From Fimbriimonadaceae bacterium (GTDB lineage: Bacteria > Armatimonadota > Fimbriimonadia > Fimbriimonadales > Fimbriimonadaceae): a stretch of 64,000 nucleotides of DNA. Below the pieces are notes generated by a model. That model ran no database searches, was not told the origin of the DNA, and was given only the letters and a program-made list of their open reading frames with translations. Within the stretch, counting starts at the first letter, position 1. Every line of letters starts with the position of its first letter. Position numbers and translations under genes: made by a program. Below are positions 933 to 58,435 of the stretch, one piece after another. The DNA is taken from assembly GCA_025455775.1 (NCBI GenBank), contig JALOLT010000001.1, positions 4,444 through 68,443 of the forward strand, written 5' to 3'.

Positions 933-1006
933 TCGCCGCGCCGGCCCAAAGCCACGCCCTCCTCGGTTCTCGCTGCGCTCAAACCTCGTCTGCCCCGTCG
1001 CGGCGA
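933..1006 (+). repeat. GC-rich hairpin repeat, GCCACGCCC family (copy F)
   Basis: Arms tcgccgcg (933-940) and cgcggcga (999-1006) are perfect complements. The inner module is ccggcccaaaGCCACGCCCtc. It lies 10 nt past the stop of the 1017..1319 ORF. Confidence 0.7.
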
Positions 1007-24874: not shown

Positions 24875-24884
24875 GCATTTTTCT

Positions 24885-24982
24885 GGTTTGCGCGCCCCGG
24901 CCCGCGGCCACGCCCGCCCGGAACCTCACTTGGGTGTCAAGTTCAAAGCTTGGTCTCCGGGCCGCCCCGGTGCACGCAAACC
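24885..24982 (+). repeat. GC-rich hairpin repeat, GCCACGCCC family, 98-nt long form (copy C)
   Basis: Arms ggtttgcgcgccccgg (24885-24900) and ccggtgcacgcaaacc (24967-24982) pair at 14 of 16 positions. Inner ccggcccgcgGCCACGCCCgcccgga ... tccgggccgccccgg. It starts 10 nt after the prpB-like stop. Confidence 0.8.
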
Positions 24983-28621: not shown

Positions 28622-28719
28622 TGACTGGCTCCCCTCCGCCCGCGGCCAAACCCGCCCGGTTCACCATGGGTCGCCATGATCCGAACACTCGTCCGGGCCG
28701 CCCGGCGGGGAGCCAGTCA
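28622..28719 (+). repeat. GC-rich hairpin repeat, same family, 98-nt long form (copy E)
   Basis: Arms tgactggctcccc (28622-28634) and ggggagccagtca (28707-28719) pair at 13 of 13 positions. Inner tccgcccgcgGCCAAACCCgcccgg ... tccgggccgcccgg. It starts 3 nt after the stop at 28618. Confidence 0.8.
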
Positions 28720-35571: not shown

Positions 35572-35789
35572 ATCGGCAATGATACAACCAATATTGAACC
35601 AATTGGGCCTAAATCGCAGAAAACTAGTATTTTTACTTGGTGATTCGGCGAAATCTTCCTGCTGCTGTCGCGGTGCGGCACTCCCCAAAGGGATCAAGAG
35701 GCGGCAGCTATTGCCGCCGCGGTTGTCTCAAGAGAGGTAGCGGCATATCTGGCTTGCGAGGACGTAATCCGATCGAGTGTTGGATACAC

Positions 35790-35861
35790 ACCTGCCACGC
35801 CGAGGCGCAGCCCCGGAGCGAAGCGGAGGGGAGGGCGTGGCCTCGGGGAGGCGGGGCAGGT
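35790..35861 (-). repeat. GC-rich hairpin repeat, GCCACGCCC family (copy A)
   Basis: Arms acctgcc / ggcaggt. The core 35800-35850 is the reverse complement of 58107-58157, 51 of 51 nt by eye. Confidence 0.8.
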
Positions 35862-36166
35862 ATCTCGATGAAGTTCAATGATCGATGAGGCAGACCTACT
35901 TTTCAGCCACCCCAGCGATCGTCTGGTTCGGGAGCAAAGGAAATGGATCCCAAAACACGGCTCAGACCAAACCCAGTGCAACGCTAGTTTCTTGCTCCTT
36001 GCTGCACCGCAATCAAAAAACTAGGCACTGGGTGGCCTGCAAATCAGTGAGACCAGAACTGGACGCTTAGGAAGGCAAGCCGGTTAAGAGAAAAAACTTC
36101 TGCCACAACGCTGCCGAAAAGGATCTCATCTTGTAAAGGGGACAACCTCCCTCACCAAGGAAGAAC

Positions 36167-58069: not shown

Positions 58070-58094
58070 AAACGACGCTTGAAGTCGTTTTTTT
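58070..58094 (+). terminator. intrinsic terminator after eda
   Basis: aaacgac-gcttgaa-gtcgttt (7-bp stem) running into a T-tract that extends to 58094. Confidence 0.7.
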
Positions 58095-58096
58095 GA

Positions 58097-58166
58097 GTCT
58101 GCCGACCTCCCCGAGGCCACGCCCTCCCCTCCGCTTCGCTCCGGGGCTGCGCCTCGGTCGGCAGAC
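58097..58166 (+). repeat. GC-rich hairpin repeat, GCCACGCCC family (copy B)
   Basis: Arms gtctgccgacc (58097-58107) and ggtcggcagac (58156-58166) pair at 11 of 11 positions. The core is identical to the reverse complement of copy A. Confidence 0.85.
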
Positions 58167-58338: not shown

Positions 58339-58410
58339 GTCTGCGCATCCAGGGGCGGAGACCCGACGAAGTCGGGTCGAGGGCGTGGCATCGGGCCGGG
58401 ATGCGCAGAC
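58339..58410 (-). repeat. GC-rich hairpin repeat, GCCACGCCC family (copy D)
   Basis: Arms gtctgcgcatcc (58339-58350) and ggatgcgcagac (58399-58410) pair at 12 of 12 positions. Inner hairpin gacccgac-gaa-gtcgggtc. GGGCGTGGC is on the plus strand. It lies 25 nt past the GH2 stop. Confidence 0.85.
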
Positions 58411-58435
58411 CAAAAATGAGACCCGATGAACCAGC

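Follow-up and report, generated by a model that had tools for sequence, protein, structure and literature searches.

Few parts of bacterial genomes are as poorly understood as short hairpin repeats, and to our knowledge the mechanism by which these repeats spread has been explained only for REPs with a RAYT. ERIC (IRU), the Correia elements of Neisseria, pneumococcal BOX and RUP and the SMAG elements of Stenotrophomonas are short, non-coding intergenic hairpins, often co-transcribed and lineage-specific, which are defined by conserved terminal repeats or boxes; some leave TA or other duplications. In integron attC sites it is the outer boxes, RYYYAAC and GTTRRRY, that are conserved, and the sites are found in cassette arrays beside an integrase. 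REP, BIME and REPIN elements, together with RAYT transposases, have been described in E. coli and Pseudomonas (PMC3116915, PMC3479197, PMC3686654).

Here, we analysed a 64,000-nt stretch of DNA (the window) from a Fimbriimonadaceae MAG of 2.99 Mb in 170 contigs (98% complete), in which an earlier note had picked out six intergenic hairpins with a conserved module just inside the left arm. All six are present at the positions and with the arms described there, and a scan of the 64-kb window with the full model found no further copies. They are given below by subfamily, P1 being the outer stem and P2 the inner hairpin, together with one neighbouring hairpin.

35790-35861, minus strand: the flagged copy, subfamily A; arms ACCTGCC/GGCAGGT, extendable to 12 bp with one mismatch, giving P1 ACCTGCCCCGCC / GGCGTGGCAGGT with one C-T mismatch; inner stem CCGAGGC / GCCTCGG, core GCCACGCCC, then an interior rich in C and T.
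58097-58166, plus strand: solo subfamily A copy; arms paired at 11 of 11 positions, P1 GTCTGCCGACC / GGTCGGCAGAC.
58339-58410, minus strand: subfamily D in its canonical short form, 76.1 bits; arms 12 of 12; in order P1 GTCTGCGCATCC, CCCGAT-GCCACGCCC, P2 GACCCGAC/GTCGGGTC, CTCCGCC and P1'.
24885-24982, plus strand: subfamily C in its long form (about 98 nt); arms paired at 14 of 16 positions; P2 branched, with GCCCGG/CCGGGC as its closing pairs.
28622-28719, plus strand: C-like long form; perfect arms (13 of 13, 13 bp); fold z = -4.97; variant core GCCAAACCC with the blocks CCC-GCG-GCC-AAA-CCC.
933-1006, plus strand: subfamily E, 30.8 bits; arms TCGCCGCG/CGCGGCGA, P1 TCGCCGCG(C)CGG.
58070-58094, plus strand: a terminator-like hairpin of ordinary type, AACGAC-gcttgaa-GTCGTT and then T7, which separates eda from the A copy and lies outside the repeat.

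The core of the flagged copy (35800-35850) is, as had been read by eye, the exact reverse complement of 58107-58157 (51 of 51 nt), the two A copies sharing their interior and differing in P1. The excess of the 9-mer GCCACGCCC is equally real, with five occurrences in the window against 0.59 expected, a number reached in 0 of 100 shuffles. When folded as single strands, five of the six copies beat their shuffled counterparts (z from -2.65 to -6.05); the copy at 933, with its pyrimidine-rich interior (TCCTCGGTTCTCGCTGCGCTC...) and no clear P2, folds no better than shuffles (z = -0.18) because that interior is unstructured. A tRNA gene at 747-829 on the minus strand (Rfam, 59.4 bits) lies about 100 nt from this E-type copy.

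Four of the copies do lie 3-63 nt past the stop codon of a co-oriented gene, as had been claimed: the copy at 28622 is 3 nt past the stop of a 242-aa ORF, that at 24885 is 10 nt past a PEP-mutase/ICL-family gene, that at 58339 starts 25 nt past GH2, and that at 58097 starts 63 nt downstream of the eda stop. Such placement favours an explanation in which the hairpins are a cis-acting structured RNA motif of 3' UTRs, transcribed with the upstream gene and present in many copies through function rather than selfish spread; the motif would bind a protein (e.g. a poly-C-reading KH-type or Rho-like protein), block 3' exonucleases or terminate transcription. We consider this motif a possible but unlikely account of the family. 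Against it counts that the element has no match in Rfam, a comparison that the earlier note had proposed: at the gathering threshold only a tRNA was matched in the whole window, and permissive scans of two element regions returned chance-level matches (E > 1).

Genome-wide, the 9-mer GCCACGCCC occurs 139 times, and CCCN{2,3}GCCACGCCC is matched 113 times against 0 in a backwards control. A descriptor combining the core (up to one mismatch), the outer stem and a GCC-type 3' junction gave 139 candidates, against 9 in the reversed genome; with 9 false or duplicate candidates taken out, 130 elements remain, which sum to 10.9 kb or 0.36% of the genome. The family is therefore considerably larger than the window had suggested. 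Its approximate composition is as follows.

Subfamily A: 46-48 copies of about 70 nt; in the window, 35790 and 58097.
Subfamily B: 26-28 copies of about 97 nt.
Subfamily C: 18-26 copies of about 100 nt; the window copies at 24885 and 28622 are C-like.
Subfamily D: 21-26 copies of about 70 nt; in the window, 58339.
Subfamily E: 6 copies, short and with no clear P2; in the window, 933.
A small cluster with the core GCCTCGCCC (provisionally F): 4 copies of long form.

Subfamilies A to E and the GCCTCGCCC cluster follow one common plan. A unit of 60-108 nt opens with the outer stem P1 (8-17 bp), continues with the 5' joining strand CCC-nnn-GCC-nnn-CCC, usually followed by TCG, then with a variable inner part (usually the hairpin P2) and a 3' joining strand, CTCCGCC or YGCC, and closes with P1'. 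The module of the earlier note is the 5' joining strand of this plan, in which fixed three-letter blocks are spaced by three free letters each. The form of the inner part depends on the subfamily: D has a simple hairpin, B and C have a longer, branched one with GNCCGG/CCGGNC closing it, and in E and A the inner part is pyrimidine-rich and contains TCGCTTCGCT. P1 and the inner part together enclose an asymmetric C-rich internal loop that is conserved across genera. The CCC-nnn-GCC-nnn-CCC and CTCCGCC pattern amounts to G blocks on the complementary strand, and could conceivably be read as a G-quadruplex or i-motif. We rate that as no more than a low-odds reading: most G runs have a length of 2-3, one tract spans P2, and under the usual energy rules a two-layer quadruplex would be unstable.

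The arms had been described as unrelated between copies, and here the description needs to be corrected. Most derive from GCGCCGCCnGG, CTGCCnnnCC or GTCTGCGCA, which indicates common descent within subfamilies, and they differ by compensated changes. Between copies with interiors averaging 93% identity, the arms are only 71-77% identical; subfamily A alone has 16 different 5' arms, which pair with their own partner at 90% of positions and with the partners of other copies at 62%. The observation that arms change while their pairing stays thus holds for the repeat family. The stems are free to change provided pairing persists. Insertion of the module into pre-existing palindromes was considered and rejected: a listing of every perfect intergenic hairpin (stem 9 bp or longer, loop 3-8 nt) contains no P1-type arms, such as GCGCCGCCnGG or GTCTGCGCA, that lack the module, and the arms are therefore part of the element.

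Fimbriimonadaceae MAGs in Armatimonadota have FtsK proteins that share 54-64% identity with the one encoded in the window, an exact-protein look-up for the same locus returned only identical contigs, and in a metagenome scan the nearest relatives were at most 53% identical in Eda. A covariance model of 18 D-type units (R1) recovers 82 elements in the source genome (E <= 1) and places the family in 22 of 175 Fimbriimonadaceae genomes, belonging to 9 of 50 genera (E <= 0.001); with no more than 30 candidates scored in each genome, there were at least 26 matches in genome G033, at least 18 in each of G179 and G195, at least 15 in G036 and at least 12 in G197. A second model (R2), made of 25 elements from other genera, was run on 401 Armatimonadota genomes drawn evenly over the phylum (208 genera); it matched ten of them, all Fimbriimonadaceae, and found no element outside that family in this sample. 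Among species of genus g34, coding DNA round a G033 element is only about 72% identical, and no element was found in the orthologous stretches.

Pairing of the arms stands well above shuffled controls across genera. In the cross-genus alignment, which was fitted to the model and so favours structure, though the margin is large, the fraction of paired cells is 94.9%; it falls to 66.5% on shuffling and to 36-50% once partners are displaced by one to three columns. Double changes are found in 17 of 18 pairs, in both stems. That both helices covary and unpaired bases are conserved over nine genera supports the RNA motif of 3' UTRs. The make-up of the pairs points the other way: of 411 cells 388 are Watson-Crick, 10 A-C, 11 other and only 2 G-U, which is unusual for an RNA family. 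As wobble pairs that might bear on which strand folds, isolated G-T mismatches number 21 in the source genome, and A-C mismatches 22.

The setting of the elements was examined on a gene map from our own rough gene calling (2,652 genes, 89% coding), on which 122 of the 130 elements are intergenic. Among the 106 elements with two neighbouring genes, 43 lie in convergent spacers, compared to 21% of spacers overall, and 17 in divergent spacers, compared to 27%; this scarcity in divergent, promoter-containing spacers would suit a 3' UTR motif. Within convergent spacers the element is nearer its co-oriented gene in 33 cases and further from it in 10 (p = 0.0006; median distances 59 and 187 nt), which is real support for the RNA motif. 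Also in its favour, close pairs are nearly always ordered plus then minus (about 20 pairs, about 9 of them independent, against about one in the reverse order), an order in which each element faces its own gene; the partners are often of different subfamilies, and the window pair 58097/58339 is among them. In tandem spacers, however, the C-rich strand is antisense to the genes as commonly as it is sense (25 against 21, stable after small ORFs are filtered out), contrary to what a transcribed motif would lead one to expect. Orientation relative to genes is biased, weakly, and in this genome no link was found between orientation and gene-strand bias or the local GC skew. For G186, a complete genome (contig C1), orientation follows the genome half in 6 of 7 copies, which is not significant, with copies on the minus strand at 41, 84 and 222 kb, on the plus strand at 1.89, 2.20 and 2.50 Mb, and a weak plus-strand match at 448 kb.

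A run of T residues marks one side of many elements. Of the 130 elements, 39 (30%) have TTTT in the 10 nt upstream of the C-rich strand and 3 have it in the 10 nt downstream, the corresponding figures for AAAA being 4 upstream and 3 downstream. The run, TTTT(T)C directly 5' of the C-rich strand, is seen here in all subfamilies, and in the window at 24875-24884 (TTTTTC, directly before the copy at 24885) and at 58411-58420 (TTTTT, on the 5' flank of the copy at 58339); the 25 elements from other genera do not show it. The T-run before the copy at 58097 belongs to a separate terminator, the hairpin at 58070-58094 with its T7. Position before the hairpin, and after it in only 3 of 130, counts against the RNA motif, and on the same grounds an intrinsic (Rho-independent) terminator was rejected.

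Some elements stand alone, others form tail-to-tail pairs in convergent spacers (the copies at 58097 and 58339 are such a pair), and others again are embedded in larger repeats. A repeat of about 200 nt with 18-bp inverted ends, GGGGCTGTCTCAAAAGTG / CACTTTTGAGACAGCCCC, houses most of the A copies that have CCTGCCCCGCC arms; it is present in about 25 copies, always with an A-type hairpin (full copies e.g. at C150:1687-1955), and the flagged copy itself sits inside a degenerate copy of this composite, at roughly 35690-35925 on the minus strand. At C8:2995-3260 the P2 position of a D element holds a whole A-containing composite in the opposite orientation, GTCTGCGCA arms mostly enclose a D interior but on contig C48 a C interior, and at C7:37085-37280 at least four 54-nt A half-units (5' arm and core as far as GGGG) follow one another in tandem and are closed by a single 3' arm. 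Such nesting, swapping of arms and interiors and tandem stacking show that modules are shuffled and nested, as in BIME-type mosaics, and the near-identity of copies at unrelated loci, with their nesting and stacking, fits poorly with a 3' UTR motif.

Pairs of a C copy (plus) and a B copy (minus), about 140-220 nt apart, are found upstream of repeated orphan RHS-core cassettes. These RHS-core/toxin-tip cassettes are present at C62:10499-11450, at C139:12372-13120 and at about seven other loci, each preceded by a conserved leader of about 400 nt that carries the inverted C and B hairpins. The end hairpin of the composite, GGGGCTGTCTC-aaaa-GAGACAGCCCC, is also found alone at about ten loci. A second hairpin family, CCCCTCTCCCCCAGTA-tttt-TACTGGGGGAGAGGGG, comprises about 12 near-identical perfect palindromes, likewise intergenic and outside the window (e.g. 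C37:3220, C151:16442, C139:2942 and C32:22171).

The term REP-like, which the earlier note had chosen, is apt for the habit of these elements and fails for REP in the proper sense, as they have neither a GTAG head nor a RAYT. High copy number, extragenic location and inverted pairs are all seen, as in REPs. A true REP/REPIN system would require the hairpins to be substrates of a RAYT (a Y1 HUH transposase) missing from the assembly, the premise being that repeat-flanked genes are easily lost from short-read MAGs. Y1 genes are indeed common in the family (119 of 175 genomes), and in the complete genome G186 an IS200-like Y1 gene of 136 aa (locus L066:1438-1929; G186:C1, about 447.8-448.25 kb) has a clear short-form member 26 nt upstream of its start, an adjacency with a chance probability of roughly 1%, since that genome has only about seven elements. 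Against this, the RAYT search that had been proposed found no Y1 domain (PF01797) in the 98%-complete source genome, nor, at E <= 0.01, in G033, G036, G179, G197, G002 or G188, six other element-bearing genomes of which five have at most 50 contigs. Y1 genes are present in 5 of 22 element-bearing genomes as opposed to 114 of 153 others, and the other 11 Y1 loci of such element-bearing genomes all lack an adjoining element (1 of 12 overall has one). GTAG within 8 nt upstream or in the first 10 nt was found in 0 of 130 elements and CTAC downstream in 1, there is no CGTC head, and units are modules with two stems and a length of 60-100 nt rather than palindromes of 20-40 nt. A RAYT was thus rejected as the cognate enzyme, with Y1 missing in seven element-bearing genomes, apart from the one adjacency in G186; for the source genome a REP/REPIN system is largely refuted, and we regard it as very unlikely.

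The outer arms resemble terminal inverted repeats, and together with the 18-bp inverted ends of the composite that holds most subfamily A copies, they bring to mind a classical MITE, that is, a deletion derivative of an insertion sequence, mobilised by a DDE transposase and flanked by target-site duplications. Direct repeats flanking the 130 elements are, however, not longer than in re-paired controls, in agreement with the earlier note, which had seen no consistent ones. It had likewise seen no transposase, and we found none linked to the elements: a paralogue screen of the genome contained almost no transposases, the exceptions being an IS3-like rve gene and a second, partial copy, and no multi-copy transposase. 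The arms differ where the interiors are near-identical, the opposite of a terminal repeat bound by a transposase, and the conserved part is internal and asymmetric. With variable ends, no target duplications and no multi-copy transposase, a DDE-type MITE was rejected and strikes us as scarcely credible. The genes between inverted elements are, from reading their sequences, ordinary (Amt, ParA-like, Crp-like, cytochrome c assembly), and no DNA-mobility enzymes were found among them; the ORFs round the G036 cluster gave no lead either.

At its safest, the family can be described as a clade-specific, structurally constrained, high-copy intergenic repeat with a REP/BIME-like habit, a different architecture and no RAYT. 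Going further, we think it on balance probable that these are lineage-restricted non-coding, non-autonomous REP/BIME-like elements, of which a folded single strand, of DNA, would be recognised by a putative factor that copies or maintains them. Free stems, a conserved loop, pairs that are nearly all Watson-Crick, near-random orientation and near-identical interiors at unrelated loci are together best fitted by recognition of a folded single strand. The two stems would serve to display the loop as the recognition site of a trans-acting factor; the strand recognised is more likely to be DNA during copying, and possibly RNA. The putative factor would not be a RAYT. If only copies that still fold were propagated or retained, compensated stems with almost exclusively Watson-Crick pairs would be the outcome. 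The gathering of elements at gene 3' ends would reflect tolerance of insertions at these sites, where they may secondarily serve as orientation-independent 3' hairpins; the definition or stabilisation of 3' ends, put forward in the earlier note, is a possible role. Movement, too, is inferred, from copy number and near-identity. Several observations weigh against recognition of a folded single strand by such a factor: no cognate protein was found, the genome has almost no transposases in the paralogue screen, covarying stems with conserved unpaired bases over nine genera are also expected of a functional RNA, and nearness to the co-oriented gene in convergent spacers hints at a sense-strand, transcript-level role. 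More speculatively, and with considerable doubt, the elements may represent a RAYT-independent class of interspersed repeat, defined by a structured module rather than by a terminal repeat or head tag, and perhaps co-opted as an orientation-independent 3'-end module. The module would be read on a single strand by a putative protein confined to one Fimbriimonadaceae sub-clade, or alternatively might form a C-tract or G-tract junction.

A structurally constrained family has thus been kept over at least nine genera and reaches about 130 copies, although the richest genomes have no RAYT, which makes it a testable question what else copies or maintains such elements. The 22 positive and 153 negative genomes of a single family provide a clean comparative set for nominating the factor. 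The repeats also have a practical bearing, as they break short-read assemblies of the lineage and can be mistaken for regulatory RNAs.

Compared to known systems, the elements share most with REP/BIME/REPIN: they are high-copy, GC-rich, extragenic hairpins with a preference for convergent spacers and gene 3' ends, a genome carries several subfamilies, copies form inverted pairs as well as nested or mosaic clusters, target-site duplications are lacking, and inheritance is vertical and restricted to a lineage. They differ from REPs, which are imperfect palindromes of 20-40 nt, in being 60-100 nt long with two stems and an asymmetric C-rich internal loop, in lacking a GTAG/CGTC head, in the lack of a RAYT in the source and six other element-bearing genomes, and in stems that vary with compensation even where interiors are near-identical. 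With ERIC/IRU, Correia, BOX/RUP and SMAG they have in common that they are short, non-coding, hairpin-forming, intergenic and lineage-specific; unlike in those families, it is an internal loop with C blocks of period 3 that serves as the signature, and the ends are variable. attC sites are similar in that the fold is conserved and not the sequence of the stems, and in that a folded single strand would be the expected target of recognition; the elements differ from them in their variable outer ends and scattered copies, and an integrase context was not seen.
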